Positions 10,075 through 40,754 are shown, counted from the first letter of the stretch. The stretch is DNA of 64,000 bases from Phycisphaerae bacterium (GCA_016931655.1 JAFGEJ010000200.1:6015-70014), one strand, 5' to 3'. Notes: generated from the letters alone by a model not told the origin. Translations and numbers: made by a program.

Positions 10075-10154
<80 letters not shown>

Positions 10155-13208: not shown

Positions 13209-13318
13209 ATGTCATCCTGAGCGGAGCGAAGCGGAGTCGAAGGACCTCACGCCTAACTACCCGTAAGATCCTTCGACTTCGTGTCTCGCTTTGCTCGACA
13301 CTTCGCTCAGGATGACAA
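13209..13318. repeat. MITE/REP-like palindromic element, copy 1 of 3, with GTCATCCTGAGCG...CGCTCAGGATGACAA termini
   Basis: Termini ATGTCATCCTGAGCGGAGCGAAGCGGAGTCGAAGGA ... TCCTTCGACTTCG...CGCTCAGGATGACAA are internally palindromic. The same termini recur at 24098 and 40621. Confidence 0.8.
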
Positions 13319-13320
13319 TT

Positions 13321-14076
13321 TTAATTTGTCTTTTTCCGCGTTCGCCGGACGATTCCCACCGCCAGCCGGCCCAGGGCCATCACGAACGCCAGACCCAGCA
13401 GGACGAGGACGGCGATATATCCTTTATCCGCCAGGCGATAGGTCACGTAGGTGATCACGGCGTATCGGATCAGTCTGCCCAGAAAATTGGCAGCCGCGAA
13501 AGGCCAGCGACTGTAACGATGCGTCGCCGCCAGCATACGGGCGACATCCACCGGAATCGGCAAAAGATTGAAGATAAACGTCAGCGCGAACGGCGCCCGC
13601 TCGAACCATCCGACGGCCCGGCGGTACGTCCGCCAGTGGCGCACGCGAGCGACCCGATGATGCCGCAGCAGCAGCGTGAAAACGTGGTAATCATTGAGAT
13701 TCGCTATCGTCGAGCCCGTCGCCCCCACGACGCTGACCGCCAGCACCGTCGTCCACAGCTCGCCCGTGACGGCGTATTGCTCCATCGCGACGGCCGCGGT
13801 AATCCAACTGGTGTTCAGCGGCAGGAACGTGCAGGAGAGCGTCATGTACAGGCCGAAGACCAGCAGTTTCACCGCCGGGGAGGCCTGGCGCACCGAATCC
13901 TTGAAGGCCGACCAGCCAGCCAGCGAAATCGGCTCCCTCGGTAATAGCACCGCCAACGCCGCCCCAGCCGAGAGCAGAACGACGAGATAAAACGCGAACC
14001 AGATTCGCAGCGTGACCTTGCGATAGTCCGCCGTCAGGGCGGCTGCGTCGATAAGTTGTTCGGGGTGGGAGGTCAT
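13321..14076 (-). CDS. DedA/VTT-domain family inner-membrane protein (tentative)
   Basis: Multi-TM ORF with a DedA-like core (...FIFNLLPIPVDVARMLAATHRYSRWPFAAANFLGRLIRYAVITYV...). Start chosen at ATG 14076; the alternative ATG at 14157 lies inside a hairpin element. Confidence 0.5.
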   Translation of the reverse strand: MTSHPEQLIDAAALTADYRKVTLRIWFAFYLVVLLSAGAALAVLLPREPISLAGWSAFKDSVRQASPAVKLLVFGLYMTLSCTFLPLNTSWITAAVAMEQYAVTGELWTTVLAVSVVGATGSTIANLNDYHVFTLLLRHHRVARVRHWRTYRRAVGWFERAPFALTFIFNLLPIPVDVARMLAATHRYSRWPFAAANFLGRLIRYAVITYVTYRLADKGYIAVLVLLGLAFVMALGRLAVGIVRRTRKKTN

Positions 14077-14117
14077 CAGGTTTTTGGAGGCGTTATGCTT
14101 TGTTAAAAATTTTTTTT

Positions 14118-14203
14118 GCCACAAAGGACACAAAGGTCTCAAAGTAAAAAACAACAAAAGGGTTTTGTTTTTCTTCTTTGTGACCTTTGTGCTCTTTGTG
14201 GCG
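14118..14203. repeat. Long hairpin, CACAAAG variant of the CACAGAG family, in the divergent promoter region between the DedA-like and ferredoxin genes
   Basis: GCCACAAAGGACACAAAGGTCTCAAAG, AT-rich loop, CTTTGTGACCTTTGTGCTCTTTGTGGC. Confidence 0.75.
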
Positions 14204-14350
14204 GCTTTTCTTTATTTTGTTTTTTTGCGATTTCAATGGAGCAAAGGCGTTACACGTTTCGCCGCGGGAACATTGTATTGTCCCAGCCGACGTTTTGCGT
14301 TACGTTTTTCCTCGCGGGGCCGATTTTTCCCCCGGCCCGGGAACACCGCC

Positions 14351-14710
14351 ATGCCGAAATATCGCGTAACCTTCCAGCCGATGGGCAAAACCGTGGAAGC
14401 GGACCCGGCGGCGTATCCCTACGGCGACCACGGCCTGCCCGGAAGCCTGCTGGATATCGCCCTGGCGTTCGGCGTGCCCATCGAACACGCCTGCGGCGGC
14501 GTGGGCGCCTGCGCGACGTGCCACGTGATCGTGACAGCCGGCGAGGAGAATCTCTCCCCACCGAGCGAAGAGGAACTGGACCAGGTGGAACTCGCCCCCG
14601 AAAGTTCGCCCGATTCGCGTCTGGCCTGCCTGGCCGTCGTGCGGGGCGACGTGACGGTGAGAATCCCCGGCTGGAACCGAAACGCCGTTTCAGAAAACGC
14701 CTCCCCGTAA
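14351..14710 (+). CDS. fdx: 2Fe-2S ferredoxin (adrenodoxin/putidaredoxin type)
   Basis: Start at MPKYRVTF (ATG 14351). Cys ligands are ACGGVGACATCH (C-x5-C-x2-C) plus the downstream RLAC. 119 aa. Confidence 0.8.
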   Translation: MPKYRVTFQPMGKTVEADPAAYPYGDHGLPGSLLDIALAFGVPIEHACGGVGACATCHVIVTAGEENLSPPSEEELDQVELAPESSPDSRLACLAVVRGDVTVRIPGWNRNAVSENASP

Positions 14711-14789
14711 AAAACGACGAAAGCACCGCCAAGGCGCTTCCGTCGCCTGGTTTTCCTCGTAATTGCAATTGAGAATTCTAAAAGACCTA

Positions 14790-14863
14790 CCACAGAGACA
14801 CAGAGGTCACAGAGAAAAACATAAAAAATTAGGTCTTTCTCTTTGCTCTCTGTGTCTCTGTGG
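14790..14863. repeat. Long hairpin of the CACAGAG family, in bidirectional-terminator position between fdx (+) and tRNA-Leu (-)
   Basis: CCACAGAGACACAGAGGTCACAGAGAAA, loop, TTTCTCTTTGCTCTCTGTGTCTCTGTGG. Confidence 0.75.
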
Positions 14864-14904
14864 TAAAAATTCCTTTTTTTCAGAGGTCTCAATTCAAAAA
14901 CCAC

Positions 14905-14990
14905 TGCCCGGGACTGGATTTGAACCAGCATGAGGTATAAACCTCACCAGGCCCTCAACCTGGCGCGTCTGCCAATTCCGCCACCCGGGC
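14905..14990 (-). tRNA. tRNA-Leu (anticodon GAG), type II with long variable arm
   Basis: Reverse complement reads GCCCGGGTGGCGGAATTGGCAGACGCGCCAGGTTGAGGGCCTGG-TGAGGTTTATACCTCAT-GCTGGTTCAAATCCAGTCCCGGGCA. Acceptor 7 bp, anticodon loop UUGAGGG, long variable stem-loop, T-loop TTCAAAT. Confidence 0.85.
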
Positions 14991-15053
14991 GGGAATCCCC
15001 GTAGAATAATTCCGCCGGCGTGGTATGTCAATACGCGGCGGGGCGGGAAGACG

Positions 15054-15196
15054 TGAGCGACCGGACTTTCCGGCATAAAGAAAAAAACAGAAAATCCGAC
15101 ACCCCTTGGGGGCAGGCTCCGTTCCTGAGAGACAGAGAAGATATAGATGATGAAAAAAATTAAAAAAATCTTCTCAGTTCCTCAGTTTCTCTGTGT
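15054..15196. repeat. About 140-bp intergenic repeat, copy 2 of 2 (first copy at 9025..9165)
   Basis: Near-identical to 9025..9165, including TGAGCGACCGGA..., GAAAATCCGACACCCCTTGGGGGCAGGCTCCGTTCCTGAGAGACAGAGAAGATATAGA and ...ATCTTCTCAGTTCCTCAGTTTCTCTGTGT. Confidence 0.8.
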
Positions 15197-15272
15197 CGCG
15201 TTTTTTACGCGCCCACAGGGCTCAGGGCGATCAGAAAGTTGCCGCCGGGAAAAAGGTCGCTTACCGGGAAGA

Positions 15273-16538
15273 CTATTCCTGCACGCGGCGGATGTTCGCG
15301 CCGAGTTGATTGAGCTTCGTTTCGATGTGCTCGTATCCGCGGTCGATGTGATACACGCGGCGGACTTCCGTTTCGCCGCGGGCGACCAGCCCCGCCAGCA
15401 CCAGCGCCGCGGAGGCCCGCAAGTCGCTGGCCATCACCGGTGCGCCGATGAGTTCCCGCACGCCCGTGACGATGGCGGTGGGGCCTTCCTTGCGGATGTT
15501 CGCGCCCATGCGCAGCAGTTCCGCCACGTGCATGAAGCGGTCGGGGAAGATTTTCTCCGTGATCGCGCTGTTACCGTCGGCCAGGCACAGCAGCGTCATG
15601 AGCTGGGCCTGTAAGTCGGTGGGGAAGCCCGGATACGGCTGGGTGGTCACGTCGGCGGGGGCAAGTCGCCTGGCCGAGGCGACCACGGCGGCGCCGTTGT
15701 GTTTTTCGACCACCACGCCGACTTCGCGGAGCTTATCGACGACGGCCAGCAGGTGATCGAGGCGGCAGTTGTGGACGGTCACGTCGCCGTTGGTAACGGC
15801 GGCGGCGAAGATGAACGTGCCGGCTTCGATGCGGTCCGGAATGACCGTATGCTCCACGCCGCCGAGTTGCTTCACGCCCTCGACGGTCACGCGCGGCGTG
15901 CCCGCGCCGCGGATTTTCGCGCCCATGGCGTTGAGCATGTCGGCCAGGTCTTCGATTTCCGGCTCGCAGGCAGCCGACTCGATCATCGTGGTTCCCTCGG
16001 CCAGCACCGCCGCCGACATCACGTTGGCCGTCCCCAGTACGGTCGAACCGAACGGCCCGCCGAGGAAAATCTCCGCCCCTTTCAGGCGGTCGCAGGAAGC
16101 GACGATGTCGCCGCCGTCCAGTTCGATCTTCGCCCCCAAAGCCCGCAGGCCCCGCAGGTGCAGGTCCACGGGCCGGGCGCCGATGGCACAGCCGCCGGGC
16201 ATGGACACCCGCGCGTAGCGGCGTTTCGCCAGCAACGGTCCCAGCACGCAAATGCTCGCGCGCATCTTCCGCACGAGGTCGTATCGCGCGTGGCTGTGGG
16301 ATTCGTCCGTCACGCGGATGCGCAATGCGCCGTTTTCGTCGCGGTCGGCGGCGACGCCCAGTTCGCCCAGGATCTCCAGCATCGCGCGGATATCGGCCAG
16401 GTCGGGCACGGATCGCAGTGTGCAGGGCTCTTCCGTCAGCAGACATCCCGCCAGGATCGGCAGGGCGGCGTTCTTCGCGCCGCTGACGGTCACCTCGCCC
16501 TTCAATCGCACACCGCCGGGAATGATGAATTTGTCCAT
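15273..16538 (-). CDS. murA: UDP-N-acetylglucosamine 1-carboxyvinyltransferase
   Basis: 421 aa, MDKFIIPGGVRLKGEVTVSGAKNAALPILAGCLL..., full-length MurA/EPSP-synthase fold. Confidence 0.9.
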   Translation of the reverse strand: MDKFIIPGGVRLKGEVTVSGAKNAALPILAGCLLTEEPCTLRSVPDLADIRAMLEILGELGVAADRDENGALRIRVTDESHSHARYDLVRKMRASICVLGPLLAKRRYARVSMPGGCAIGARPVDLHLRGLRALGAKIELDGGDIVASCDRLKGAEIFLGGPFGSTVLGTANVMSAAVLAEGTTMIESAACEPEIEDLADMLNAMGAKIRGAGTPRVTVEGVKQLGGVEHTVIPDRIEAGTFIFAAAVTNGDVTVHNCRLDHLLAVVDKLREVGVVVEKHNGAAVVASARRLAPADVTTQPYPGFPTDLQAQLMTLLCLADGNSAITEKIFPDRFMHVAELLRMGANIRKEGPTAIVTGVRELIGAPVMASDLRASAALVLAGLVARGETEVRRVYHIDRGYEHIETKLNQLGANIRRVQE

Positions 16539-16783
16539 ACGTTACATAACCTTCGTTATACAGAATCCGTTTTTGGCCCCAAAGGGGCGACAGCAATTTT
16601 GTACTTCTGTTATATCGCTGCCGCCCCTTCGGGGCTACCGCCTTTTTATCATCTTTCCGGGGGTTCGCTGCGCTCACCCCCGGCTATGCGCTTACCAGCC
16701 CTTCGGGCTTCAAGAATACACACAAAAAGATCAACTCCGCTTTCATAGATTGTGCGTTTAATTGGAATTCCCAATACATAACG

Positions 16784-18568: not shown

Positions 18569-18902
18569 GCAATCACGTTCCTCGCGCAAGAAAGGGCCTT
18601 CCGAACACTCGTTTCAGGGGATATTCTATCCTCCCAGCCGCGGCGTGTCCAAACAACTCCCCGCGAGTGGAATTTGTAAGCCGTCTGAGATCCTATTGTG
18701 AGGACTACGACCTTTTATCCCAAATCACACTGTTGAGAAATCATCCACGGATTACACTGATTTTTTAGAGATTTCACGGATTCCTTCTATAATTTTGTGA
18801 AAATATCTTTTCCGTGTAATCCGTTTTTTCATTCGTGAAACTTGCCTACCGGCAGGTAGGTCCGTGGACTCTTTTTACAGACAGCATAACCGCGAAAGAA
18901 AT

Positions 18903-20300
18903 ATGTATCGAACGGACGACACGATTGCCGCCATTTCTTCGGCGGCCGGCTCGGGCGCTCGGGCGCTGGTGCGCCTTTCCGGGCCGGAGGCTGTGGCGCT
19001 GGCGGAAAAGCTGTTTTTCCCCGCCGACGGGCGGCTGGCGGACCTGGGGGGATTTCGATTCGCCGACGGGCGCGTGCGGATTTCAGGCCTGCCGGGCGAA
19101 CCGCTGGAGACGCCCGCTCGAGCGTATGTCTTTCGCGCCCCGCAGAGCTATACGCGCCAGGACGTCGTGGAAGTGCATCTGCCCGGCTGTTCCGCCCTTG
19201 CGCGGGCGCTGCTGGAGGCGTTCCAGGCCGCCGGCGCACGGCAGGCGGAACCGGGCGAATTCACGCTGCGGGCCTTTCTCCACGGGCGGATCGATCTTTC
19301 GCGGGCCGAGGCCGTCGCCGACGTGATCCACGCCGCCGACGAGACTCGCTTGCGGGCGTCGCTGGCGGCGCTGGGGGGTGAAGTTCACCGCCGCACGGGT
19401 CGGTCCGCCGAGGCAATTGCCGAAGCCCTCGCGACGGTGGAGGCGTCCATCGACCTGGCGGAGGAGAATCTGCAACTGGCCCAGCCGGGCGAACTGGCGG
19501 GAATTCTGCACGCCGAGGCGAAGACGTTACGCGGCATCGCCGAGACGGCGCTGCATCTGCCCGACGCCGCGGAAACGCCCACCGTTGTTTTGGCGGGCCG
19601 GCCCAACGTGGGCAAAAGCTCCCTGCTCAACGCCCTGACCGGCTGCGATCGCGCGATTACTTCCGCGCTGGCCGGCACGACGCGCGACGTGCTCAGCGCC
19701 CCGCTGGAACTGCCCGGCGGCGCGACGGTGGACCTGCTCGACGCGGCTGGGTTCGGCGCGACGGACGACGAACTGGCGACTGTGGCGAACAACGCCGCCG
19801 ACGCCGCCGTCGCGCGGGCCGACGTGGTCTGCTTCGTTACCGACGCCGACGCGTCGCGCGACGACGACGAACTGCTGGAGCGCCTTGGTAGAGTCAATCC
19901 GTCCGCCCCTCTGCTGCGGCTGCGGAGCAAGTGCGACCGTCCGGCGACTTCGGTAAAGCAGCCGGCGGGCGATTCGGCGATCCTTCTGACTTCCGCTCAT
20001 ACCGGCGAGGGCTTACCGGCTGTCAAACAGCGGCTGGCGGAACTGCTGCACCTGGAGGCGCAGCGCTCCGGCGAGGCCCTGGGCCTGCACGACCGCCAGC
20101 GCCGCTGCCTGCACGCCGCCGCGGAGGCCTGCCGGGCCGCCGGCAATCTGCTTTCGCGGGCGATAACCGTCGCCGATACGGCTGAGCTGACGGCCCTCGA
20201 ACTGCGCGAAGCCCTGCGACACCTCGGAGGGATTTCCGGGCAGGTCGTTACCGAAGATATCCTCGGAAAAATCTTCGCCCGGTTCTGCGTGGGAAAGTAA
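18903..20300 (+). CDS. mnmE: tRNA modification GTPase MnmE (TrmE)
   Basis: Start at MYRTDDTIAAISSAAG. G-domain GRPNVGKSSLLNALTG. C-terminal ...ILGKIFARFCVGK, the conserved CxGK tail. Confidence 0.9.
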   Translation: MYRTDDTIAAISSAAGSGARALVRLSGPEAVALAEKLFFPADGRLADLGGFRFADGRVRISGLPGEPLETPARAYVFRAPQSYTRQDVVEVHLPGCSALARALLEAFQAAGARQAEPGEFTLRAFLHGRIDLSRAEAVADVIHAADETRLRASLAALGGEVHRRTGRSAEAIAEALATVEASIDLAEENLQLAQPGELAGILHAEAKTLRGIAETALHLPDAAETPTVVLAGRPNVGKSSLLNALTGCDRAITSALAGTTRDVLSAPLELPGGATVDLLDAAGFGATDDELATVANNAADAAVARADVVCFVTDADASRDDDELLERLGRVNPSAPLLRLRSKCDRPATSVKQPAGDSAILLTSAHTGEGLPAVKQRLAELLHLEAQRSGEALGLHDRQRRCLHAAAEACRAAGNLLSRAITVADTAELTALELREALRHLGGISGQVVTEDILGKIFARFCVGK

Positions 20301-20420
20301 GAATTGGGGACTAGGGACTAGGGACTGGGCAAGTCCCGTGCGAGGAGTATTTTCTTCTGGGAATACCTTTTGATGTCTTGCCAGTGGACATCTTTTGGGC
20401 GGGACGCTATATCCAAGGCC

Positions 20421-21872
20421 ATGAAGAAGCAGATGTATCGAGCGGTATGGATACTTTCGGCGGTTTTCGCCGTCCTGACGGCTGGGGCGCGGGCGCAAAA
20501 TTTACCCGAAAGCCGTCCGGCCGTCGCGGACAATCTCGCCCGGCTGGTCGAGGCGTTTGAGCGGGCAAACAAAGCTCGCGTGGGCGTTTCGGTGGTCGAT
20601 CTGCGGACGGGTCAGCCGATCTTCGCTCATCGGCAAGGCGAGGCGATGATCCCGGCCAGCAACCAGAAGATTCTGGCCGCCGCCTTCGCCCTGGATCGCC
20701 TGGGGCCACAGGGCGTGTTTGCCACGGCGGTATACGCAGCCGGGCGCGACATCGTCGTAACCGGCCAATACGATCCGCTGCTGGGCGATCCGATCCTGGC
20801 GCGACGCGAGGGAAAAAGCATCTACGCCGAACTCGATCGCTGGGCCGAGGCGGTCCGCGCCGCGTATGGCGAGGCGATTCCCGGCGACCTGATCCTGGCC
20901 AGCCGGTCCACGTCGGCGGGTCTTCATCCGCCGGCCTGGCCTGTGCGTCATCACGGCCGCTGGTACGGGGCGGCTGTGGCGGACCTGAACTTCCACGACA
21001 ACTGCTTCGACGTGACGTTCGTTGAACGGGACGGAACCATTCAGCCCGCCGTGGCGCCGGCGAGTCGATATATTCGCGTTCTCAGCGAGTTGAAGCTTCA
21101 GCCGAGGGGCCGGCACCTCTGGCGGCTGAGGGAATCGCCCGACGGCGCGACGTTGACACTCACGGGCCAAATCCGTGGCCCGGCTGCCGATCCGCTCAGC
21201 ACGCCGATGCGCGATCCCCGCATTACGCTGGGGCGCGTACTGGCGGGCCGACTGGCACAGGCGGGCGTTCGCGTCGGAGGGCAGTTGCGCATCCTGCCGG
21301 CGGACCGAGTGAATCTCGCCGGCGCTCGCCTGTTGGCCAAGAGCGAATCGACGCTCCGCGACGTTCTGCATCGCGCCAACAAGCGCAGCCTGAACCTGGC
21401 CGCCGAGTGCATGCTGCTCCGCGCCGGCGACGGCGCGTGGGCCGGCAGCGCACGGCAGATGCACGACGTGTTGGTGGAACGCTTCGGCCTGGACGCCCGA
21501 ACGCTGGCGATTCACGACGGGTCGGGGCTGGCGGAAGACAACCGCGTTACCAGCGGCGACCTGGCGAAGCTCCTGGCCGCCCTGAGCAATGGCCCATGGG
21601 CGGAGATGTTCCTGGCGAGCCTGCCCCGAAGCGGCGTGGACGGATCGCTGAAACGCCGGCTGAGGGAGGAACCGTATCGCGGGCGGATCGCCGCCAAGAC
21701 CGGAACCCTCGCCGGTGTCCGCACGCTCAGCGGATACGTCCTGGACGCGGGCGACGACAAAAAACCCGTTATCGCGTTTTCCATTCTCGCCAACGACCTG
21801 TCCAGCCGGGCGCAAGGCCTCGCCAAATCCCTCCAGGATCAACTCTGCCGGGAACTCGTGGACGCCAGATAA
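20421..21872 (+). CDS. dacB: D-Ala-D-Ala carboxypeptidase/endopeptidase, PBP4 / peptidase S13 family
   Basis: Signal peptide after MKKQMYRAVWILSAVFAVLTAGARA. SxxK motif ASNQK, KTG motif KTGTL. About 480 aa. The start could be the upstream ATG at 20370. Confidence 0.8.
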   Translation: MKKQMYRAVWILSAVFAVLTAGARAQNLPESRPAVADNLARLVEAFERANKARVGVSVVDLRTGQPIFAHRQGEAMIPASNQKILAAAFALDRLGPQGVFATAVYAAGRDIVVTGQYDPLLGDPILARREGKSIYAELDRWAEAVRAAYGEAIPGDLILASRSTSAGLHPPAWPVRHHGRWYGAAVADLNFHDNCFDVTFVERDGTIQPAVAPASRYIRVLSELKLQPRGRHLWRLRESPDGATLTLTGQIRGPAADPLSTPMRDPRITLGRVLAGRLAQAGVRVGGQLRILPADRVNLAGARLLAKSESTLRDVLHRANKRSLNLAAECMLLRAGDGAWAGSARQMHDVLVERFGLDARTLAIHDGSGLAEDNRVTSGDLAKLLAALSNGPWAEMFLASLPRSGVDGSLKRRLREEPYRGRIAAKTGTLAGVRTLSGYVLDAGDDKKPVIAFSILANDLSSRAQGLAKSLQDQLCRELVDAR

Positions 21873-21895
21873 ATTCTCAGAGCCTGTATGAAAAT

Positions 21896-21980
21896 GTGTC
21901 GCGGGCCTCTGGCCCGCGCGTATCGAGGGCGTCCCGCCCTCGGAAAGGTCCCATTTGCGCGGGTAAGATACCCGCGACAC
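21896..21980. terminator. Cluster of GC-rich hairpins between convergent dacB-like and secA-like genes, likely bidirectional terminators
   Basis: GCGGGCC-TCT-GGCCCGC, GAGGGCG-TC-CCGCCCTC and GCGCGGGTA-AGA-TACCCGCG stem-loops. Confidence 0.5.
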
Positions 21981-22007
21981 TTGAAAATGCACTTTTCATA
22001 CACGTTC

Positions 22008-23996
22008 TCAGTGCTCCCGGCCGGCGAAGCCGAGGTATTCGTCCAGCCAGTCGTCGTTTTTGAGCACGCCTTTTCGCTGACGCAGGGCCTGTCGCTCGGC
22101 CTTGCGCTGGGCGTGGTCGAAAAGGCGGCGATTCCACTTCGTGGAAATTTCTTCCATCGCCTGGCCGTGACGTTTGCGCAGCACGCCGGAAAAGTACGGC
22201 GTGTGTCGTTCGACGAGTTCGTCTTCCAGGCAGACGATCGCTTCGGCGCTGCCCGGATCGCCCTGGCGGGCGCAGCGGCCGAAGAGTTGCCGGTCGATGC
22301 GCCCGGCTTCGTGCCGTTCCGTGGCGATCACGTGCAGCCCGCCGAGTTCCGCCACGCCGCGCCCGAGTTTGATGTCCGTTCCACGCCCGGCCATGTTCGT
22401 CGCGACGGTAATTCGGCCGGACTGGCCGGCCTGGGCGACGATTTCCGCCTCTTCCTTGTGGCGCACGGCGTTGAGGATCTGGCAATCCAGTCCGCGGGCC
22501 TCCAGCAGTCGGCCGAGGTGCTCGCTGGCGCGCACGCTCCGCGTGCCGATCAGCACGGGCCGGCCCCGCCGGTGCATCGCCTCGATGCTCTCGACGATGG
22601 CGGTGAACTTGGCCTGTTCCGTCGCGAACACGCGGTCGGGCGCCTTGGTGCGAATGCAGGGGCGGTTCGTCGGGATCACCACGACGGGCATGTGATAGAT
22701 CTGCCAGAATTCCGCCCGGGCCTCAGCGGCGGTTCCCGTCATGCCGCACAGCCGGCGGTACAGCCGAAAGAACCGCTGGAAGCTGATCCGGGCGTAGGTG
22801 TCCTTCGGCGCCTGTACTTCCAGGTTTTCCTTGGCGCTGACGGCCTGGTGAAGTCCGTCGCGCCATTCGCGGTCGGGCATCAGTCGGCCGGTGAACTCAT
22901 CCACGATAACGACCTTTTCCTCCTGGATGACGTACTGCTTTTCGAGCTGGTAGAACACGCGGGCGGTCAGGGCCTGGTTGACGAGCTCCTCCCGCCGCCG
23001 CGCGCCGGCCCACACGCCGCCTAAGGGTCTGGCAAGCTCCGCGAGTTTTCGCCGCCCAGCCGGTGTGAATTCGACCTCCCGATAGCGCGGGTTGACCTTG
23101 TAGTGTTCCTTCGGTTCCAGTTGCGCCGCCAGTTTGGCCGCTTCGGTGAAGGCCTCCACCTGTTCGGCGTTGGGCGCTTCGCCGGAGATAATCAGGGGCG
23201 TGACGGCTTCGTCAATGAGAATCGAATCGACCTCGTCGACGATGGCGTAAAACAGGCTCCGCTGCACGAGGCGGTCCGTGCCCGATCCGGCGCCTTTGGC
23301 GATCTTCGCCAGCAGCGCCTCGGGCAGTGATTTGACCCGTCCCAGCGCCAGGCGGTCGCGGAGGTAGTCGGCGGAGACTTCCTTGTTCGTGCAGTAGGTG
23401 ATGTCGGCCTGGTAGGCCAGCTTGCGCTGCGGCGGGGGCGTTTCCTGCTCGAGGAAGTCGCACCGCAGCCCGCAGGTGCGATAGATGTTCCGCATGGTCT
23501 CCGCGTCGCGCTTGGCGAGGTAGTCGTTGGCGGTCACGACGTGGCAGCCCTGGCCTCGCCAGCCGGCGATGGTCGCCGGGAGGGTGGCGGTGAGGGTTTT
23601 GCCCTCGCCGGTGGCCATTTCAGCGATGCCGCCGTCGGCCATCACCAGCGCGCCGGCCACCTGCACGGGGAAGGGCTTCATGCCCACCTGGCGCTGGGCC
23701 GCCTCGCGGATCATCGCGTAGGCGTGGTCAAGGTGCTCGGCGGTGTCGCGTCCGCGGCGGAAGGCGACCCGCAAATCCTGGAGCTTTCCCCGCAAGGCCG
23801 CGTCGGCGAGGCTTTTGTATTGGTCTTCCAGGGCGACGATTCGCCGGGCTCGCGCGAGATACGACCTGGTGTGCAGCGTCAATCGCCGCGCCAGGCCGGC
23901 TGCGTGATCCCAGGTTGCATCCAGGCCCTTGGGCAATTCCTTGCCCCGGGGACTCCGCGAAAGCATCTGCCAGGTTGTACTTGCCGCGGTGGACAT
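22008..23996 (-). CDS. SecA-family ATPase paralog with NBD1, PPXD and NBD2 but a truncated helical scaffold and no wing domain or C-terminal tail
   Basis: 662 aa. N-terminus and motor motifs align to SecA (MKPFPVQVAGALVMADGGIAEMATGEGKTLTATLP...VVTANDYLAKRDAE...TNMAGRGTDIKLG...). Ends at ...HAQRKAERQALRQRKGVLKNDDWLDEYLG, which is where the HSD begins in E. coli SecA. Followed by terminator hairpins, not by a shifted continuation. Confidence 0.75.
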   Translation of the reverse strand: MSTAASTTWQMLSRSPRGKELPKGLDATWDHAAGLARRLTLHTRSYLARARRIVALEDQYKSLADAALRGKLQDLRVAFRRGRDTAEHLDHAYAMIREAAQRQVGMKPFPVQVAGALVMADGGIAEMATGEGKTLTATLPATIAGWRGQGCHVVTANDYLAKRDAETMRNIYRTCGLRCDFLEQETPPPQRKLAYQADITYCTNKEVSADYLRDRLALGRVKSLPEALLAKIAKGAGSGTDRLVQRSLFYAIVDEVDSILIDEAVTPLIISGEAPNAEQVEAFTEAAKLAAQLEPKEHYKVNPRYREVEFTPAGRRKLAELARPLGGVWAGARRREELVNQALTARVFYQLEKQYVIQEEKVVIVDEFTGRLMPDREWRDGLHQAVSAKENLEVQAPKDTYARISFQRFFRLYRRLCGMTGTAAEARAEFWQIYHMPVVVIPTNRPCIRTKAPDRVFATEQAKFTAIVESIEAMHRRGRPVLIGTRSVRASEHLGRLLEARGLDCQILNAVRHKEEAEIVAQAGQSGRITVATNMAGRGTDIKLGRGVAELGGLHVIATERHEAGRIDRQLFGRCARQGDPGSAEAIVCLEDELVERHTPYFSGVLRKRHGQAMEEISTKWNRRLFDHAQRKAERQALRQRKGVLKNDDWLDEYLGFAGREH

Positions 23997-24097: not shown

Positions 24098-24219
24098 TGT
24101 CATCCTGAGCGAAGGCCCGAACGAAGTGAGGGCCGCAGTCGAAGGATCTAAAGCCTCAAAAGCATCAGGTCCTTCGACTGCGGGGCTCGCTCTGCTCGCC
24201 CCTCCGCTCAGGATGACAA
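24098..24219. repeat. MITE/REP-like palindromic element, copy 2 of 3
   Basis: TGTCATCCTGAGCGAAGGCCCGAACGAAGTGAGG...GTCGAAGGATC ... GGTCCTTCGAC...CCGCTCAGGATGACAAT. Confidence 0.8.
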
Positions 24220-24280
24220 TCTATAGTATGGCCGCCAGATAAAATCCTCGCATACTTGGTGAATCGGCGAGATTTGTATA

Positions 24281-25801
24281 TCAGGGAGTTTGTTTTTCCC
24301 AATCCACCATCGCCCTGACCAATGCATCAATGGTGTGCGGCTGGGCGATGACGGTGGGTTCCACGTCCGCGGCGCGGAGCGCGTCGGCCGTCACGGGTCC
24401 GATAGCGGCGATCTTGCAGCCGGCTGGTTTTCCCGCCAGTGTGACGAAATTTTCCACCGTCGAGGACGACGTGAACGTGATCCAATCGACGCGCCCGGTC
24501 TGGAGGGCTTCCTGCGCGGCGGCGGGAAGACCGGCGGGGCGGCGAGTGCAATAGGCGATCACGTTTGTAACGTCGGCCCCGGCGGCGGAGAGAGTTTCAA
24601 CCAGTTCGCGCGGTGCGATGTCCGAGCGGGCAAGCAAAATCCGTTTTTTTGCCATGCCCTGCTCGATCATCGCCCGGCTGAGGGCGGCGGAGGTAAATTC
24701 TTCGGGTACAAGGTCCGCCCGCAGGCCGCCCGCCCGCAGCGCCCGGGCCGTCGCGTCGCCCAATGCGGCGATTCTCACGCCCGCCAGCGCGCGGGCGTCT
24801 CGCCCTGTCGCCGCCAGTCGCTCTAAAACCGCCTCCGCGCCGTTGGGACTGCTCAGCGCCAGCCAGTCGAATTCCGACAGCCGCCCCAAGGCCGCGTCCA
24901 GGTCGCCCCAGTCGTCCGGCGGTGTGATTTCGATGGCCGGCGCCTCGATGACTTCCGCGCCGTACTCCGCCAGAGCAGCCGACAACCGCGACGCCTGCCG
25001 GCGTGACCGCGTCACGAGCACGCATTTGCCCGCCAGCGGCAGGCGCTCGAACCAGCCCCATCGCCGCGACGTTTCCGTGGTCTTTCCGATGATCACAACC
25101 GCCGGGGCCTGGAGCGCCTCGGCTCGGGCGATCTCCGGCAGGGTCGCGAGCGTCGCGCGGATGGTCCGCTGATGCGGCGTTGTGGCGTTTTCCACCGCGA
25201 CGGCCGGCGTGTCGGGCGCCCTGCCGGCCTCCAGGAGACTTCGACAAATTTCCCCCAGCCGTCCCACGCCCATGTAGAACACCACCGTGTCAATGCCCGC
25301 CAGGGCTTTGTAGTTGACGGAGGAGGCTTCCTTCTCCGGGTCCTCGTGGCCGGTGACGAACGCCACGGTGGAGGCGAATCGACGGTCCGTCAGACTCACG
25401 CCCGCGTACGCGCCGGCTGCCAGGGCCGCCGTTACGCCCGGGACGATCCGAAACGCCAGTCCCGCTTCGCACAGGGCGTCGAGTTCTTCTCCGCCGCGGC
25501 CGAAGAGTAACGGATCGCCGCCCTTGAGCCGAACCGTAAGTTTCCCCTCGCGCACCTTCGCCGTCAGCAGGTCGTTGATCTGCTCCTGCGGAATGCTGTT
25601 GCGCGAGGGCGATTTGCCCACGTCGATTTTCTCCGCACTTTCCGGTGCGAGACTCAGCAGGGTCGGGTTCGCCAGGCGGTCGTAGATAACGCACTGGCAA
25701 CGCCTTAGCCACGCCTCGCCCTCGCGCGTGAGCAACCCTTCCGCCCCGGGGCCCGCCCCCAGGAGCACCGCCAGGCCGGTATTGTTCGGCGTGTTCGACA
25801 T
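24281..25801 (-). CDS. cobA-hemD: Bifunctional uroporphyrinogen-III C-methyltransferase / uroporphyrinogen-III synthase (CobA-HemD fusion)
   Basis: N-terminal SUMT domain (LGAGPGAEGLLT...GGDPLLFGRGGEE...), C-terminal HemD-like half. 506 aa. Confidence 0.8.
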   Translation of the reverse strand: MSNTPNNTGLAVLLGAGPGAEGLLTREGEAWLRRCQCVIYDRLANPTLLSLAPESAEKIDVGKSPSRNSIPQEQINDLLTAKVREGKLTVRLKGGDPLLFGRGGEELDALCEAGLAFRIVPGVTAALAAGAYAGVSLTDRRFASTVAFVTGHEDPEKEASSVNYKALAGIDTVVFYMGVGRLGEICRSLLEAGRAPDTPAVAVENATTPHQRTIRATLATLPEIARAEALQAPAVVIIGKTTETSRRWGWFERLPLAGKCVLVTRSRRQASRLSAALAEYGAEVIEAPAIEITPPDDWGDLDAALGRLSEFDWLALSSPNGAEAVLERLAATGRDARALAGVRIAALGDATARALRAGGLRADLVPEEFTSAALSRAMIEQGMAKKRILLARSDIAPRELVETLSAAGADVTNVIAYCTRRPAGLPAAAQEALQTGRVDWITFTSSSTVENFVTLAGKPAGCKIAAIGPVTADALRAADVEPTVIAQPHTIDALVRAMVDWEKQTP

Positions 25802-33729: not shown

Positions 33730-33825
33730 AGAATACGTTACATTATGAATTTGGCATACTGTACTATTATTACACTACATTACTTCGCTTTTTATTATCC
33801 GAGTATTCCGAGTAATTTGTGTAGT

Positions 33826-35591: not shown

Positions 35592-35606
35592 ATTGGTAAT
35601 AAGGCT

Positions 35607-35691
35607 CGACACAGAGTTCCTGAGAAACAGAGAAAAGAAGAGAAACGTTCTTTTCTAAAGGTATTCTCTGTTCCTCTGGAACTCTGTGTCG
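35607..35691. repeat. Long hairpin of the CACAGAG family in a divergent promoter region
   Basis: CGACACAGAGTTCCTGAGAAACAGAGAA, loop, TTCTCTGTTCCTCTGGAACTCTGTGTCG. Confidence 0.75.
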
Positions 35692-35883
35692 GATTTGTTG
35701 TTTTTCTTCCTGCCTGGAATCCGTTTTTCGTTCAGCCCGTCCAGACGCTCAATTGGGATTGCAGCGGCGGGCAGAGTGACTATAATACCGAATTCCGCGG
35801 TGAAGGCAATCCGCCTTCCGTTTCCCCGTCGGACGGCCACGACGCGAAAAAGAAACCATTAGCATAACGAGGAGATACGAGAC

Positions 35884-37215
35884 ATGGAACCGGCAATTTC
35901 CGACGCCCTGGACGCGATCCTCTCCCGGGACGCCTGGACGATCAACGATTATCAGGACCTCATGACGGCTCTCTCGACCGCCCCCGGCGCTTCCAACCGC
36001 TGCCGGCAGATTCTGGCGGACCTGGAGGCGAAAAACCCCTCGCCCCGGGGCGCCAAGGCGCTGATGATCGGCATCCTGCGATACATGCTCTGCCGCTTCG
36101 AGGAAGCGATCTCGGTTCTGGCCGACGCGACGGACAACCGGGATCGTCACTTCTTCGCCGGCCAGTGTTATCGCGCCTGCCGCCGGTTCGACCAGGCCGT
36201 CGAGGAATTCGAGCGGGCCAAGGCCCGCGGCTGGGAGGGGCCGGACGGCGACGTGCTGATCGTCGAAGCCCTGGCGATGGGCGGGAAACCCGACCAGGCC
36301 GCTAAAACCCTCAAGGGAATCGCCAGACAGGTCGACGGTACGGCAACGGGATTGTACCTCCAGGGTCTGCTGACGGAACTGGACGGCCGCGGCGAAGAGG
36401 CGGCGGAACTCTACGAACAGGCTCGCGATCTGAACCCGGCACACGGGGAAGCCACGTTTCGCCTGGCCTACTACCTCGACCTGCACGGCCAGGAGGAAGA
36501 GGCGGTCGAACTGTACCGCCAGTGCCTTTCTCATCCCCCCATCCACGCCAGCGCGCTGCTGAACCTGGCCGTCCTGCACGAGGATATGGGACAGTATGAC
36601 AAGGCCATCTCGTGTCTGAAGCGCCTGTTGGCGGTCAATCCGAATCATCCCCGCGCCCGGCTGTTTCTGCGCGACGCCCAGGCGTCACGCCACATGTACT
36701 ACGACGAAGACCAGGCCCGGCGCATCGCCAAGCGCAACGCCGTGCTGGATATCCCCGTAACGGACTTCGAGTTGTCCGTCCGGGCCCGAAACTGCCTCAA
36801 GAAAATGAACATTATGACCCTCGGAGACCTGGTACGCACCACGGAAACCGAACTGCTGGGATACAAAAACTTCGGGGAAACCTCGTTGAAGGAAATCAAG
36901 GACATGCTGGCCGCCAAGGGTCTGCGCCTGGGACAGGACAGTGAAGGCGCCGGCGGGGAATTGGGCGAACTGCTCGAGGAGATCGAGTCGGACGAGCCGG
37001 GCGCCGACCATGGCGCGGCGGCTTTGACCATCGAACAGGTGGAGTTTTCCGTTCGCGCCCGGCGCGTCCTGGAACAACTCAACGTCCGAACCCTCGGCGA
37101 CCTGGCCGCCAAGACCGAAGCCGAACTGCTCAGCCAGAAAAACTTCGGACAAACCAGCCTCGCCGAAATGCGCCAGCGCCTCTCGGAAAACGGATTGCAT
37201 TTCCGGGAAATGTAA
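35884..37215 (+). CDS. TPR-repeat protein with two C-terminal RNA-polymerase alpha-subunit CTD-like domains
   Basis: N-terminal about 280 aa of TPR. Two repeats follow: FELSVRARNCLKKMNIMTLGDLVRTTETELLGYKNFGETSLKEIKDMLAAKGLRLG and VEFSVRARRVLEQLNVRTLGDLAAKTEAELLSQKNFGQTSLAEMRQRLSENGLHF. Both closely match the RpoA alpha-CTD consensus (LTVRSANCLK...IGDLVQRTE.ELL...NLGKKSLTEIKDVL). Confidence 0.8.
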   Translation: MEPAISDALDAILSRDAWTINDYQDLMTALSTAPGASNRCRQILADLEAKNPSPRGAKALMIGILRYMLCRFEEAISVLADATDNRDRHFFAGQCYRACRRFDQAVEEFERAKARGWEGPDGDVLIVEALAMGGKPDQAAKTLKGIARQVDGTATGLYLQGLLTELDGRGEEAAELYEQARDLNPAHGEATFRLAYYLDLHGQEEEAVELYRQCLSHPPIHASALLNLAVLHEDMGQYDKAISCLKRLLAVNPNHPRARLFLRDAQASRHMYYDEDQARRIAKRNAVLDIPVTDFELSVRARNCLKKMNIMTLGDLVRTTETELLGYKNFGETSLKEIKDMLAAKGLRLGQDSEGAGGELGELLEEIESDEPGADHGAAALTIEQVEFSVRARRVLEQLNVRTLGDLAAKTEAELLSQKNFGQTSLAEMRQRLSENGLHFREM

Positions 37216-37254
37216 TGGCTGCACGCTGAACAATTCCATGCCTTTCGCTATCGG

Positions 37255-37920
37255 ATGGACACGAAAATGATTCGCGCCCTACTTTTCGACAGCGACGGAG
37301 TGTTGGTGGACACGGAGCCATTGTTCTTTGACGCGACCCGAATCGCTTTTGCCTCCGCCGGCGCAAACCTTTCCCGCGAACAGTGGGCGCGATGGTATCT
37401 GGCGGAGGCAAAGCACTCCGGAGAAATCGCGGACCAGCTCGGCCTGGGCGAATCCCGCCGACAAACCGCACTGGCGGAAAGAGACAGGCTCTTTTGGACG
37501 CGAATGGACGAGGGCGTTCCAATCTTTCCCGGCGTCGTGGAAACCCTTCAGACCCTTGCCCGCCGGTTTCGCCTGGCTGTTGTGACCGGCGCGCCCCGAA
37601 AACGCTTCGAGCGGATTCACGCGTCCACGAATCTTTGCCCGTTCTTTGAAACCATTGTCGCGTGTGACGAACACGAATACGCCAAGCCGCATCCGTGGGG
37701 CTATCGGACCGTCCTGGAACGGCTGGGTCTGAAACCCGAGGAATGCCTGGCCGTGGAAGACTCCCCCCGCGGCGCGGTCGCCGCCGTTTCGGCGGGAATC
37801 GCCTGCTGCGTGATTCCGACCCCCTTGACCCTTCGGACGCTCTGCCCCCCCGAATGTGCGATCCTGAACGATTTCACACAACTGATTCCCTTCCTGGACG
37901 AGGAGAACCGAAATCCATGA
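37255..37920 (+). CDS. HAD-superfamily hydrolase, subfamily IA (phosphatase / beta-PGM-like)
   Basis: IRALLFDSDGVLVDTE is HAD motif I. ...AVVTGAPR... and ...AVEDSPRG... are motifs II to IV. Confidence 0.75.
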   Translation: MDTKMIRALLFDSDGVLVDTEPLFFDATRIAFASAGANLSREQWARWYLAEAKHSGEIADQLGLGESRRQTALAERDRLFWTRMDEGVPIFPGVVETLQTLARRFRLAVVTGAPRKRFERIHASTNLCPFFETIVACDEHEYAKPHPWGYRTVLERLGLKPEECLAVEDSPRGAVAAVSAGIACCVIPTPLTLRTLCPPECAILNDFTQLIPFLDEENRNP

Positions 37921-38549
37921 GAACCTTGCCCCAATTGTTTGAAAACAATCGTCAATGGGCCGAAACCATCACGAAAAACCAGCCGGACTTTTTCCCGACG
38001 CTCTCACGACAGCAGTCGCCGAACCTGCTCTGGATCGGCTGCTCGGACAGTCGCGTCCCGGCCAATGAAATCGTGGGACTTCTGCCCGGAGAACTGTTCG
38101 TGCATCGCAACGTCGCCAATCTCGTCGTTCCTTCCGATATGAATGGTCTTTCGGTGATCCAGTATGCCGTGGACGTGCTGAAGGTGCGGCACATCATCGT
38201 GTGCGGCCATTACGGCTGCGGCGGCGTCAGGGCGGCGATGGAAGCCCCGCGGCACGGACTGATCGACAATTGGCTGGGGCATATACGCGCCCTGTATCAT
38301 CGGCAACGGGAGGAATTGGCGTGTATCGCGGAGGAAAAAGCGAGGGTGGATCGTCTCTGCGAGATCAACGTCATGGAGCAGGTGAAAAACACCGGCAACA
38401 CGACCATCGTGCAGGACGCCTGGCAAAGAAGACAGCCTCTGGTGATTCACGGATGGATGTACAGCATCTCGAACGGTCTTCTGAAGGATCTCGGTCTGTC
38501 CATCGCTTCGTCCGAAGAACTGGAAGAATCCCGGGATCGCGGAAAATAA
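37917..38549 (+). CDS. can: Beta-class carbonic anhydrase
   Basis: ATG 37917 overlaps the HAD stop (ATGA). CSDSRV ... HYGCGG are the beta-CA zinc-ligand motifs. 210 aa. Confidence 0.85.
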   Translation: MRTLPQLFENNRQWAETITKNQPDFFPTLSRQQSPNLLWIGCSDSRVPANEIVGLLPGELFVHRNVANLVVPSDMNGLSVIQYAVDVLKVRHIIVCGHYGCGGVRAAMEAPRHGLIDNWLGHIRALYHRQREELACIAEEKARVDRLCEINVMEQVKNTGNTTIVQDAWQRRQPLVIHGWMYSISNGLLKDLGLSIASSEELEESRDRGK

Positions 38550-38584
38550 CAGCCGGCGGAAATTCCATGAATCGCAAGGCCGGG

Positions 38585-39247
38585 TTATGTTTCCCGTCCC
38601 GCGGCGCTGAGGGTGCGGAAGACCGGCCCGGGCGGGGCCAGGCGGTGCGGTTGGGTGATCTCGCGCGTTTTGAGGAACCGCACGCCCTTGGCGTTCATTC
38701 GGCTGTAGGCCATTCCCGCGGCCGGATCGTCCAATCCCAGCACCGCGTCGGTCGCCAGCGTCACACGAAAACCGCGCGCCCGCAGCCCCACCGCCGCCTG
38801 GACAATCCCGTGGGCCACGCCCGCACCGCAGAGAACAAATTCCACGGAGGGCAGTTCGCTCAGCAGACGCTCCGCGCGGGCGTGCAGAAAAATATCCGTG
38901 TTGCGCTTCTCGAAGATCACCTGCCGGTACTGCTCGAACAGGTCGTCCGGCAGGTCCGTGGTGTTCAGCAGGCCGAGGTTCAGGTACGGCCTGACAATGG
39001 TCTTGAAGAGCTTCCTCTCGCCGGGCGTGCCTTCCACACAGTGCGGCTTATCCGCCAGCGGACCGATGCGTCCGTCCGGCACGCGCAGAACGGTGCTCAG
39101 GATCGGATGATCGTTCCGCTTCGCCCAGTCGAACAGGCTGTAGATGTTAGATCGGGCCGCGTCCGCCTCGTGGGTGTAGCAGCGCCCCTGGGAGAGAAAG
39201 AAATCCCGTTGCACTTCAATGTCGAGCAGAATCAAATCATACGTCAT
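38585..39247 (-). CDS. Isochorismatase-family (cysteine hydrolase) protein
   Basis: MTYDLILLDIEVQRDFF ... FVLCGAGVAHGIVQAAVGLRARGFRVTLATDAV. Typical D/K/C arrangement. 220 aa. Confidence 0.6.
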   Translation of the reverse strand: MTYDLILLDIEVQRDFFLSQGRCYTHEADAARSNIYSLFDWAKRNDHPILSTVLRVPDGRIGPLADKPHCVEGTPGERKLFKTIVRPYLNLGLLNTTDLPDDLFEQYRQVIFEKRNTDIFLHARAERLLSELPSVEFVLCGAGVAHGIVQAAVGLRARGFRVTLATDAVLGLDDPAAGMAYSRMNAKGVRFLKTREITQPHRLAPPGPVFRTLSAAGRET

Positions 39248-39411
39248 GGCCCACCTCCCTTCCCGGGCCTGGGCTTTCCCCTAACCTCCAGATCATTGTA
39301 GGCGCACAACAGACGGGGCGGGGCAAAGGCCCCTTTATATTTAGACGAACGTTTCTCCCGGAGGGTTCGGGGAAAATGGAACTTTTTTGCCCGTTCGAGC
39401 TTTGAGCCTCG

Positions 39412-40599
39412 CTATCGAACGGTCAGGAAAAATTCCATGAGATTCGCGCCGGCGTCGATGTGCAGGTCGCTTTGGCGTGCATTTGCCTCGGTGAACGAAC
39501 CGGTCAGGACGTGCTCCATGCGTTTTCCGGCGATGGCAAACGGCACGGCTTCGGACGTATGCGTGCGAAGCCGGCAGGGCGTGGGGTGGTCCGGCAGGAC
39601 GAGGATGCGCCACTCGTCGCCCTCGGCCTGGAGGCGCTCCAGCAGCGGTGCGATGATTTTCTCGTCGATTCGCTCCAGGCCGACGAGTTTCGCCTTGCCG
39701 TCGGCGTTGTGCCCGGCTTCGTCCGGGCCTTCCAGGTGCACGAGCACCAGGTCGTGGGTGTCGAGGGCTTCGACGGCGGCGGCGGCTTTGCCTTCGTAGT
39801 TCGTGTCCACCAGTCCGGTCGCGCCGGGCACGTCGATCACGTCCCAGCCGATCAGCCGCGAAAGCCCGCGAACCAGATCGACGGCGGTGATCGCGGCGCC
39901 CCGTACGCCGAATCGCTCCTCGAAGCCGGGCAGTTGGGGCATCTTGCCCTGCCCCCACAGCCAGATGTTCGTGGCGGGATTTTCGCCCAGTTCCCGGCGG
40001 ACGGCGTTGATTTCCTCTCCCGCCAGGAGCGTTTCCGCCGCGGCCATGAGCTTGCGCAGCCGTTCGGCGCCCCGGCCGGTCGGAAGGTGATCGTCGGCCT
40101 TTCGGCCGAGAATGTCATGCGGCGGGATCGTCTGAACGTCGAAGTCGGCGTCTATGGTTGTCAGGTGGCGGTAGCTCACGCCGGGATAAAAATGCACGCC
40201 GATTTCGCCAAGAGCGGCCTGGAGCTTCCGAAGGATCTCCCCGCCTTCCTCGGTCGTGATATGCCCCGCGGAGTGATCCTCCATCACGCCGTCGATAATC
40301 GTCACGAGATTGCAGCGGAAAATCCACGCCTCCGGCGGGACGGTCAGTCCCTGTGCGGCGGCCTCCAGCGGCGCCCGGCCGGTGTAGAACTCGACAGGGC
40401 TGTAGCCCAGGACCGAAAGAATCGCCACGTCCGAACCGGGGGCCATATCGGCGGGGATATTCCGCACCGTACCGATTCGTCCATGCTTGGCGATCCAGTC
40501 CATGTTCGGCGTGCGGGCCGCCTCCAGGGGCGTCTTGCCGCCGAGTTCCTCCAGCGGTTCGTCGGCCGCCCCGTCCGGTATGATGATGGCGTATTTCAT
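39412..40599 (-). CDS. Archaeal-type cofactor-independent phosphoglycerate mutase homolog (ApgM family). Family members next to hom have been proposed as non-canonical homoserine kinases.
   Basis: Start at MKYAIIIPDGAADEP (ATG 40599). Alkaline-phosphatase-superfamily metal ligands (...VLPDHPTP..., ...HLEGPDEAGH...). 395 aa. Immediately downstream of hom. Confidence 0.75.
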   Translation of the reverse strand: MKYAIIIPDGAADEPLEELGGKTPLEAARTPNMDWIAKHGRIGTVRNIPADMAPGSDVAILSVLGYSPVEFYTGRAPLEAAAQGLTVPPEAWIFRCNLVTIIDGVMEDHSAGHITTEEGGEILRKLQAALGEIGVHFYPGVSYRHLTTIDADFDVQTIPPHDILGRKADDHLPTGRGAERLRKLMAAAETLLAGEEINAVRRELGENPATNIWLWGQGKMPQLPGFEERFGVRGAAITAVDLVRGLSRLIGWDVIDVPGATGLVDTNYEGKAAAAVEALDTHDLVLVHLEGPDEAGHNADGKAKLVGLERIDEKIIAPLLERLQAEGDEWRILVLPDHPTPCRLRTHTSEAVPFAIAGKRMEHVLTGSFTEANARQSDLHIDAGANLMEFFLTVR

Positions 40600-40620
40600 T
40601 TTTGTTACCCAGCTATCTTT

Positions 40621-40754
40621 GTTGTCATCCTGAGCGAAGTCGCGTGTGAGCGAAGCGAACATCGCGACGAAGTCGAAGGACCTTATGGGATTGAGGAGGC
40701 GAGGTCCTTCGGCTTCGACTCTCGCTACGCTCGAGTCTTCGCTCAGGATGACAA
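40621..40754. repeat. MITE/REP-like palindromic element, copy 3 of 3, inserted between hom and the apgM-like gene
   Basis: GTTGTCATCCTGAGCGAAGTCGCG...GAAGTCGAAGGACC ... GGTCCTTCGGCTTCGAC...GTCTTCGCTCAGGATGACAA. Confidence 0.8.

Follow-up and report, generated by a model that had tools for sequence, protein, structure and literature searches.

Short hairpin repeats served by a small GIY-YIG nuclease have been described in Neisseria meningitidis, where SsnA, a 94-amino-acid (aa) protein made of a single domain (cd10448), acts on a hairpin repeat termed NTS (CGTCATTCCCGCGMAVGCGGGAATCYRG), a subset of dRS3 (Chenal et al. 2025, Nat Commun 16:2388, PMC11893778). SsnA binds NTS only as single-stranded DNA (ssDNA) and cuts a few nucleotides upstream of it, with no action on double-stranded DNA (dsDNA), RNA or the reverse strand (PMC11893778). 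Three bases 5' of the palindrome matter for cutting and a C directly after the palindrome matters for binding, the loop can be lengthened, and activity was abolished by mutation of Y6, Y17 and E64 (PMC11893778). Ssn-related motifs (SRMs) flank 71% of the homologues (42% on both sides) in several phyla, and the published SRM pattern was built by hand from 29 genomes of four phyla (PMC11893778). The authors point to the insertion sequence (IS)-like layout NTS-ssnA-NTS and to an analogy with repetitive extragenic palindromic (REP) sequences and their REP-associated tyrosine transposases (RAYTs), and they leave the role of Ssn outside Neisseria open (PMC11893778). Here, we report on three palindromic elements in a 64-kb window, i.e., the whole stretch of 64,000 nucleotides (nt) analyzed, from a Phycisphaerae metagenome-assembled genome (MAG). 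Positions follow the numbering of this window, and loci from relatives and other genomes carry labels of the form L###.

These elements, which are about 110–130 bp long and hold no gene in any of the three cases, are probably gene-less inverted doublets of SRM hairpins, with the layout of an ssn gene between two units from which the gene is missing. We classify them as doublets of Ssn motifs devoid of an open reading frame (ORF), comparable to REP doublets forming hairpins (REPINs) and to Neisseria intergenic mosaic elements (NIMEs), rather than as miniature inverted-repeat transposable elements (MITEs) with terminal inverted repeats or as RNA elements. A conspicuous Phycisphaerae repeat is thereby assigned to the Ssn/SRM system, described in 2025.

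Architecture of the elements and their stem-loop units

Exact matches to GTCATCCTGAGCG occurred six times in the window, arranged as three inward-facing pairs (13211/13316, 24099/24217 and 40624/40752). In dinucleotide-preserving shuffles, with up to two mismatches allowed, a mean of 1.8 matches was obtained and six were reached in 0/100. All three elements end in exact GTCATCCTGAGCG/CGCTCAGGATGAC, and reading and alignment revealed a T...A pair conserved just outside the termini, which sets the element boundaries at 13210-13317, 24098-24218 and 40623-40753. The inner palindrome AGTCGAAGGAYC...GRTCCTTCGAC was present in 3/3 copies, and one long hairpin was predicted for each element on either strand (-59 to -86 kcal/mol, z = -7.6 to -10.3). 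A first-pass annotation of the same DNA had proposed three copies with shared inverted termini and an internally palindromic core, and had suggested RNA folding of both strands as a check; the termini, the core and the folding were all borne out, and its coordinates proved correct to within 1-3 nt.

Each element is built from two inverted copies of one stem-loop unit, separated by an unrelated centre of 17-18 nt. On the strand starting with TGTCATCCT, the unit reads, from 5' to 3', TGTCATCCT-GAGCG...AGTCGA-AGGAYCT or, in degenerate form, TGTCATCCTGAGCG...AGGAYCT. All six window units begin with TGTCATCCT, as do 141 copies from loci of other genomes, among the matches listed, although these loci had been retrieved with the same motif. 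The commonest form in the 141 copies, which is also the shortest, is GTC-ATCCT-GAGCGNAGCGA-AGGAT-C, in which a 5-bp stem closes an 11-nt GAGCGNAGCGA loop. The base directly after the palindrome is a C, with units ending in AGGATC or AGGACC.

In five of the six window units, an extra hairpin is nested in the loop around a common GAGCRNAGCGA motif, with five different stems. Element 1 (13210-13317) consists of a left unit (13210-13247) without a nested hairpin, a centre (13248-13265) and a right unit (13266-13317) with the nested stem GTGTC/GACAC around GAGCAAAGCGA (minus strand). Element 2 (24098-24218) carries the nested stems GGCCC/GGGCC in its left unit (24098-24149) and GGGGC/GCCCC in its right unit (24167-24218), on either side of the centre at 24150-24166. 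Element 3 (40623-40753) has TCGCGTGT/ACATCGCGA around GAGCGAAGCGA in the left unit (40623-40683) and GACTC/GAGTC in the right unit (40702-40753), with the centre at 40684-40701. The arms of copies 2 and 3 thus differ: each arm has a nested stem that pairs within itself, and the stems of the left and right arms lack complementarity to one another, which indicates that local folding of the arms is preserved irrespective of the long hairpin. In a comparison of 88 units of this kind, 66% had a perfect nested stem of 4 bp or longer, versus 25% of shuffled inserts, and the loops of the nested hairpins were often GNA triloops.

The outer stem of the unit covaries as well. In 157 units from loci selected by protein alignment (see below), the variable stem triplet was exactly complementary in 111, with 10 Watson-Crick types represented (among them CCT/AGG, GCT/AGC, TCT/AGA, CCC/GGG and TCC/GGA), compared to a mean of 19 and a maximum of 36 when stem partners were shuffled. 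On this comparative evidence, the local hairpin of the unit appears to have been maintained in evolution.

In common with NTS and the SRMs, the units have GTCAT as their 5' edge, a hairpin measuring some 20 nt or longer, and a C immediately after the palindrome. Both repeats are multi-copy and intergenic, lie on both sides of a single-domain GIY-YIG gene of about 94 aa and tolerate insertions in the loop, and the single-unit shape predicted by a nearest-neighbour DNA model is the same as that of NTS. They differ in sequence, the stem ATCCT/AGGAT and the loop GAGCGNAGCGA found here standing in place of the NTS stem ATTCCCGC/GCGGGAAT and loop GMAV, and in arrangement: the window copies, which come from a Phycisphaerae MAG, are inverted doublets enclosing no gene and bearing nested hairpins, and no ssn lies in the window.

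A GIY-YIG nuclease gene beside the units

The genes neighbouring the elements were examined by an all-against-all comparison of the ORFs located within 1.5 kb of elements at 118 loci, among the matches listed. The sole small family to recur was a protein of about 93 aa, encoded 15-47 nt from the element in L006 (Hymenobacter), L026 and L115 and carrying a GIY-YIG domain (PF01541). The largest cluster of neighbouring ORFs comprised generic ABC ATPases and was discarded as no real association. The reverse test consisted of a metagenome scan by alignment of the 93-aa protein alone, which yielded 80 loci. At 53 of these 80 loci, a GTCATNNTGAGCG unit (with at most one mismatch) was located within 250 nt of the GIY-YIG gene, with a forward unit upstream in 38 loci, a reverse unit downstream in 30 and units on both sides in 21. 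Unit density amounted to 3.55 per kb near the gene versus 0.18 per kb further away, a 20-fold difference, and the commonest unit type was the exact 13-mer of the window.

A tblastn search with the L115 protein against a plasmid collection retrieved a mislabelled Neisseria gonorrhoeae chromosome (44.7% identity, E = 4e-13), and the matching locus (L205) encodes a 94-aa protein surrounded by canonical NTS copies. The unit-flanked proteins were 35-45% identical to this Neisseria SsnA, and Y6, Y17 and E64 were invariant in an alignment of the N. gonorrhoeae protein with five of them. Given this homology to SsnA, the proteins beside GTCATCCTGAGCG units belong to the Ssn family, and the units are SRMs in the functional sense. 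NCBIfam held no specific model for these GIY-YIG proteins, and their matches in the PDB were limited to the UPF0213 structural-genomics entries 1zg2 and 1ywl. Literature searches by motif strings returned nothing relevant, only unrelated work on short hairpin RNAs, and a search on YhbQ/COG2827 gave nothing useful. An ssn-type GIY-YIG gene with flanking units was also seen on plasmid p1 of Planktothrix agardhii (L206, record 18847-19131), where it sits between a type IIL MmeI restriction-modification gene and the DISARM gene drmA, i.e., in a defence-island context.

With an Ssn-family GIY-YIG protein of about 93 aa as the partner, the analogy lies with REP/REPIN sequences or NIMEs rather than with MITEs bounded by terminal inverted repeats. 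In NIMEs (dRS3-RS-dRS3; Bentley et al. 2007, PMC1797815), as in the elements described here, two inverted short hairpin repeats enclose a variable segment of 20-200 bp, and both isolated units and tandem arrays occur. NIMEs were reported as Neisseria-specific (PMC1797815), whereas the present elements have another repeat sequence type and are mostly solitary. An array of this sort, resembling those of NIMEs and of bacterial interspersed mosaic elements, was found in an Eremiobacterota MAG (L041, 6309-7224), with six near-identical elements in tandem at a 136-bp period and one 272-bp gap.

REPINs and RAYTs (Bertels and Rainey; RAREFAN preprint 10.1101/2022.05.22.493013) are similar in a further respect, since they too comprise non-autonomous inverted hairpin doublets without target duplication, together with one small nuclease gene that has the same repeat on either side. 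The enzyme, however, is an HUH Y1 transposase in that system and a GIY-YIG nuclease here, and the GTAG motif is absent from the present repeats. That the window elements are themselves REP/REPIN sequences served by a RAYT, an IS200-like Y1 transposase, is barely credible. Hairpin units paired in inverted orientation, with no target duplication, are indeed the REPIN architecture, but the 5' motif is GTCAT and not GTAG, the associated gene encodes a GIY-YIG nuclease, and no other family recurred near the elements by ORF clustering, in which no Y1-transposase profile was run.

Insertion without target duplication and distribution across phyla

One genome per species was scanned for the two termini at a spacing of 75-105 nt, which returned at least 118 loci in more than 15 phyla. 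These included Bacteroidota, Chloroflexota, Planctomycetota, Actinomycetota, Acidobacteriota, Gemmatimonadota and Bacillota, together with Alpha- and Gammaproteobacteria, Verrucomicrobiota, Spirochaetota, Nitrospirota, Patescibacteria, Eremiobacterota and others, and the pattern was also present on three viral contigs. The palindrome usually ended 0-3 nt outside TGTCATCC...GGATGACA and extended by at least 4 nt beyond the boundary in only 16% of copies (1.7% of controls), which indicates that the element boundary is discrete. The notion that the elements sit inside pre-existing hairpins was dropped, as flank complementarity of at least 4 nt was confined to the same 16%.

No direct target duplication above chance was detected in the 141 copies at offsets of 0-3 and lengths of 3-8 nt, where counts were at or below expectation, and none was visible in the alignment of filled and empty sites described below. 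MITEs of the Correia, ERIC and RUP families are likewise 100-150 bp long, with terminal inverted repeats, insertion into intergenic regions or operon spacers, and co-transcribed hairpins; the window elements differ from them in having neither target-site duplications nor a DDE-transposase parent. The terminal inverted repeats, the small size and the intergenic location would all suit classical MITEs, that is, deletion derivatives of an IS moved by a DDE transposase. We nevertheless regard this origin as very improbable: direct duplications of at least 3 nt were absent from the 141 copies at every tested offset, no transposase recurred among the neighbouring ORFs of the 118 loci, and the gene that carries the same termini encodes a 93-aa GIY-YIG nuclease. 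The first-pass annotation had seen a genome-dispersed, non-autonomous element of MITE or REP type inserted into operon-like gene pairs, with further copies and target-site duplications to be looked for. Dispersal and insertion stand, given the 118 or more loci, an empty site in relatives and a centre shared between non-orthologous positions, whereas the classical MITE is not supported, in view of the missing duplications and transposase.

Insertion was most directly seen at element 1. The corresponding site is empty in L208 (78% aa identity) and L210 (70%), in which the VTT and LolA-like genes overlap by 4 nt (ATGA), compared to about 125 nt, including element 1, between the aligned flanks in the window. 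A third relative (L209, 68%) carries a different palindromic insert of 79 nt, ATGCCCACCCGCC...GGCGTGAGGGCAT, at the VTT/LolA junction (760-838), so this junction seems to have been hit repeatedly. Copy 1 shares its centre with three non-orthologous positions in the related MAG GCA_016929245.1, which indicates that whole elements were copied. The hom-apgM spacer of the same MAG (L122) contains an element with termini identical to those of copy 3, an interior differing by indels and diverged flanks, and this spacer holds unrelated sequence in L123. At the same spacer of an 82% relative (L124, 1016-1524), the element is replaced by a 127-aa 23S_rRNA_IVP (PF05635) gene flanked by its own inverted repeats GGAAGCGGG.../...CCCGCTTCC, a second case, at this site, of a small gene between hairpin arms.

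At element 2, synteny breaks down: the gene after cobA-hemD is convergent or missing in L211, L212 and L213, and is never secA. Exact elements occurred about once per 8-20 kb in the window and in GCA_016929245.1, and none was found in about 54 kb from four other relatives. The copies in the window are insertions without target duplication, and these filled and empty sites, together with the gene-less state of the doublets, bear on the question left open by Chenal et al. of NTS-ssnA-NTS as a mobile element.

A mechanism for their spread can be outlined on the model of SsnA. Whenever the spacer became single-stranded, during replication, repair or DNA uptake, the 5' end of the element would, on each strand, expose a single unit in the correct orientation, and nicking at the element boundary by a cognate Ssn, encoded at another place in the genome, would follow. 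Such nicking, when repeated and combined with repair or template switching, would spread and homogenise the elements in a REPIN/RAYT-like manner. The window copies would then be tolerated insertions into operon spacers, and any influence on the mRNA, be it a strong intercistronic hairpin or an end to the translational coupling of VTT and LolA, would be a side effect.

We tentatively raise the possibility, itself rather doubtful, that the doublets and the unit-ssn-unit cassettes constitute a true family of transposable elements, whose sole enzyme would be the ssDNA nuclease of about 93 aa with its GIY-YIG domain and which would move via ssDNA without target duplication. The filled and empty orthologous sites, the whole-element copies at non-orthologous loci, the units nested in the loops of units and the tandem partial duplications of ends are consistent with such a family, without being proof of it. 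If it exists, it would represent a prokaryotic transposition mechanism outside those of the DDE, HUH, serine and tyrosine enzymes, extending over more than 15 bacterial phyla with almost invariant 13-nt ends.

With regard to the ends, the terminal 20-26 nt were partly duplicated in tandem in L040 (5900-6047), L035 (2612-2764), L023 (4010-4116) and L206 (298-356 and 939-997), one example being GTCATCCTGAGCGCAGCGGT repeated five times. At the right ends in L021, L024 and L073, GCTCAGGATGAC was duplicated together with about 12 nt of flank. Such tandem end duplications, like the nested units, may have been left behind by recurrent cycles of cutting and repair at the boundary.

Several observations weigh against the assignment to the Ssn system or against mobility driven by it. 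To our knowledge, no Ssn has been shown to mobilise DNA. A GIY-YIG ORF was found neither in the 64-kb window nor in about 104 kb of relatives' loci, which makes the presence of a cognate Ssn in the source genome an assumption. The published SRM pattern, HGTCWYN(0-2)YYVSBRHN(0-5)WNVSBRGN(0-2)RNCYNB, matched neither the elements nor any of the 80 Ssn loci, and thus misses the GTCATCCTGAGCG unit type, which is nonetheless the commonest around the sampled Ssn genes and spans more than 15 phyla. The pattern does match canonical NTS, and it is an operational search pattern rather than a functional criterion. Single units were assigned only -1.8 to -9.9 kcal/mol by the nearest-neighbour DNA model (z of about 0), no better than shuffles. 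The GCGAAGC core is a classic, unusually stable DNA mini-hairpin, and this stability may be the reason why the model rates single units as weak. The exact insertion junction of copy 1 was not fixed to the nucleotide in the filled-versus-empty alignment. In addition, the whole doublet is predicted to form one long hairpin in which GTCAT is paired, and dsDNA is no Ssn substrate (PMC11893778). Lastly, the role shown for Ssn in Neisseria is a reduction of transformation by NTS-carrying DNA (PMC11893778).

That role suggests the main live alternative for function, in which the repeats are domesticated host sites rather than selfish ones: a resident Ssn would cut marked ssDNA that is incoming or exposed and so modulate recombination or horizontal transfer in the vicinity of the flanked genes, without transposition. 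This is the only role of an Ssn/NTS pair shown by experiment (PMC11893778), and the termini of copy 3 and L122 were perfectly kept in the same spacer while the flanks diverged. Against it, the flanked genes are housekeeping genes, and the empty site in relatives and the same centre at unrelated loci point to recent copying. We know of no natural competence in this lineage, which counts in the same direction, and overall we consider domestication unlikely.

Flanking genes, transcripts and other repeats

Pfam searches agreed with the first-pass annotation on the gene pairs around all three copies, each of which lies between two co-directional genes, the six genes all being on the minus strand. 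Upstream of element 1 is a VTT/DedA-family gene (13321-14157, as listed for the ORF; the true start may be further in), whose TAA stop codon (13321-13323) is located 3 nt outside the element boundary. The LolA-like gene downstream (12355-13188) has kept its GAAAGGA Shine-Dalgarno sequence and its ATG, 21 nt past the element. Element 2 is preceded by a cobA-hemD fusion gene (TP_methylase and HEM4 domains; 24281-25801) and followed, with a start about 100 nt past the element, by a SecA-like gene of 662 aa (22008-23996). Element 3 is located between the homoserine dehydrogenase gene (hom; 40781-42130) upstream and an apgM-like gene of the cofactor-independent phosphoglycerate mutase family (PhosphMutase/Metalloenzyme; 39412-40599) downstream, with its ATG at 40599. 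For annotation purposes, the elements explain spurious ORFs, and their insertion can split a translationally coupled gene pair. In the SecA-like ORF, Pfam matched only DEAD-like, preprotein-binding and P-loop domains, and it is followed by a 496-aa ORF (20502-21992) without a Pfam match; the SecA-like gene may have been split, or it may be a SecA paralogue of unusually small size.

The location of 3/3 copies between co-directional genes, and the very stable hairpins predicted for the coding-strand RNA (-64 to -86 kcal/mol), would fit cis-acting elements of a polycistronic mRNA, that is, an attenuator, an RNase III processing site or a stabiliser setting the ratio of the flanking genes. We hold such a function to be quite improbable. 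The hairpins are comparably stable on both strands, and the elements stand beside unrelated genes in many phyla. The site of copy 1 is absent in relatives with overlapping genes, and the hairpin is therefore not an ancestral regulator. The two arms of an element have local stems of their own, with no pairing between them, and SsnA does not bind RNA (PMC11893778). A search for intrinsic terminators, defined by a G+C-rich stem followed by a T-run on the transcribed strand, identified none at any of the three elements. In Rfam 15, only two tRNAs in the window passed the gathering score, and matches at the elements were restricted to generic microRNA-hairpin models below threshold. An incidental effect of the hairpins on the mRNA is possible for elements that we otherwise read as Ssn-motif doublets.

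One partial Rfam match also speaks for an RNA element. In Hymenobacter glaciei (L006, 3498-3721), a variant doublet with a compensated stem, GTCATGCTGAGCG...AGCATC, matched the full model of RF02901 (AaHKsRNA41, Aggregatibacter small RNA 41) on both strands, with a score of 52 bits versus a gathering score of 97. None of the window copies matches this model at all, and the Hymenobacter match is a lead only; the RF02901 family may itself be such a repeat. A further near-threshold match, unrelated to the elements, was to Acido-Lenti-1 RNA (RF01687) in a related Phycisphaerae MAG (L007, 7396-7440; 36.3 bits versus a threshold of 37).

The window contains additional repeats. A second palindromic family of about 80 bp, CACAGAGACACAGAG...CTCTGTGTCTCTGTG, is represented at 10071-10152, 14788-14865 and 35607-35691, with related half-sites at 9150 and 15181. 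Its motif was matched 8 times, compared to a chance expectation of 0.16, and identity between the copies at 10071 and 14788 is 84%. At 9060-9178 and 15089-15209, a directly repeated segment of some 120 nt, with 95% and 85% identity in two blocks, adjoins CACAGAG palindromes, and its second copy is situated about 100 nt from a tRNA-Leu gene (14905-14990). ORFs overlapping or adjoining these repeats had no Pfam match. The spacer immediately downstream of the LolA-like gene contains 91 A+T-rich nt enclosed by a perfect inverted repeat of 33 nt, AAGAGAACACGAATTACGCGAATAAAGACGAAT (12192-12224 and 12316-12348), and this arrangement may be another palindromic insertion.

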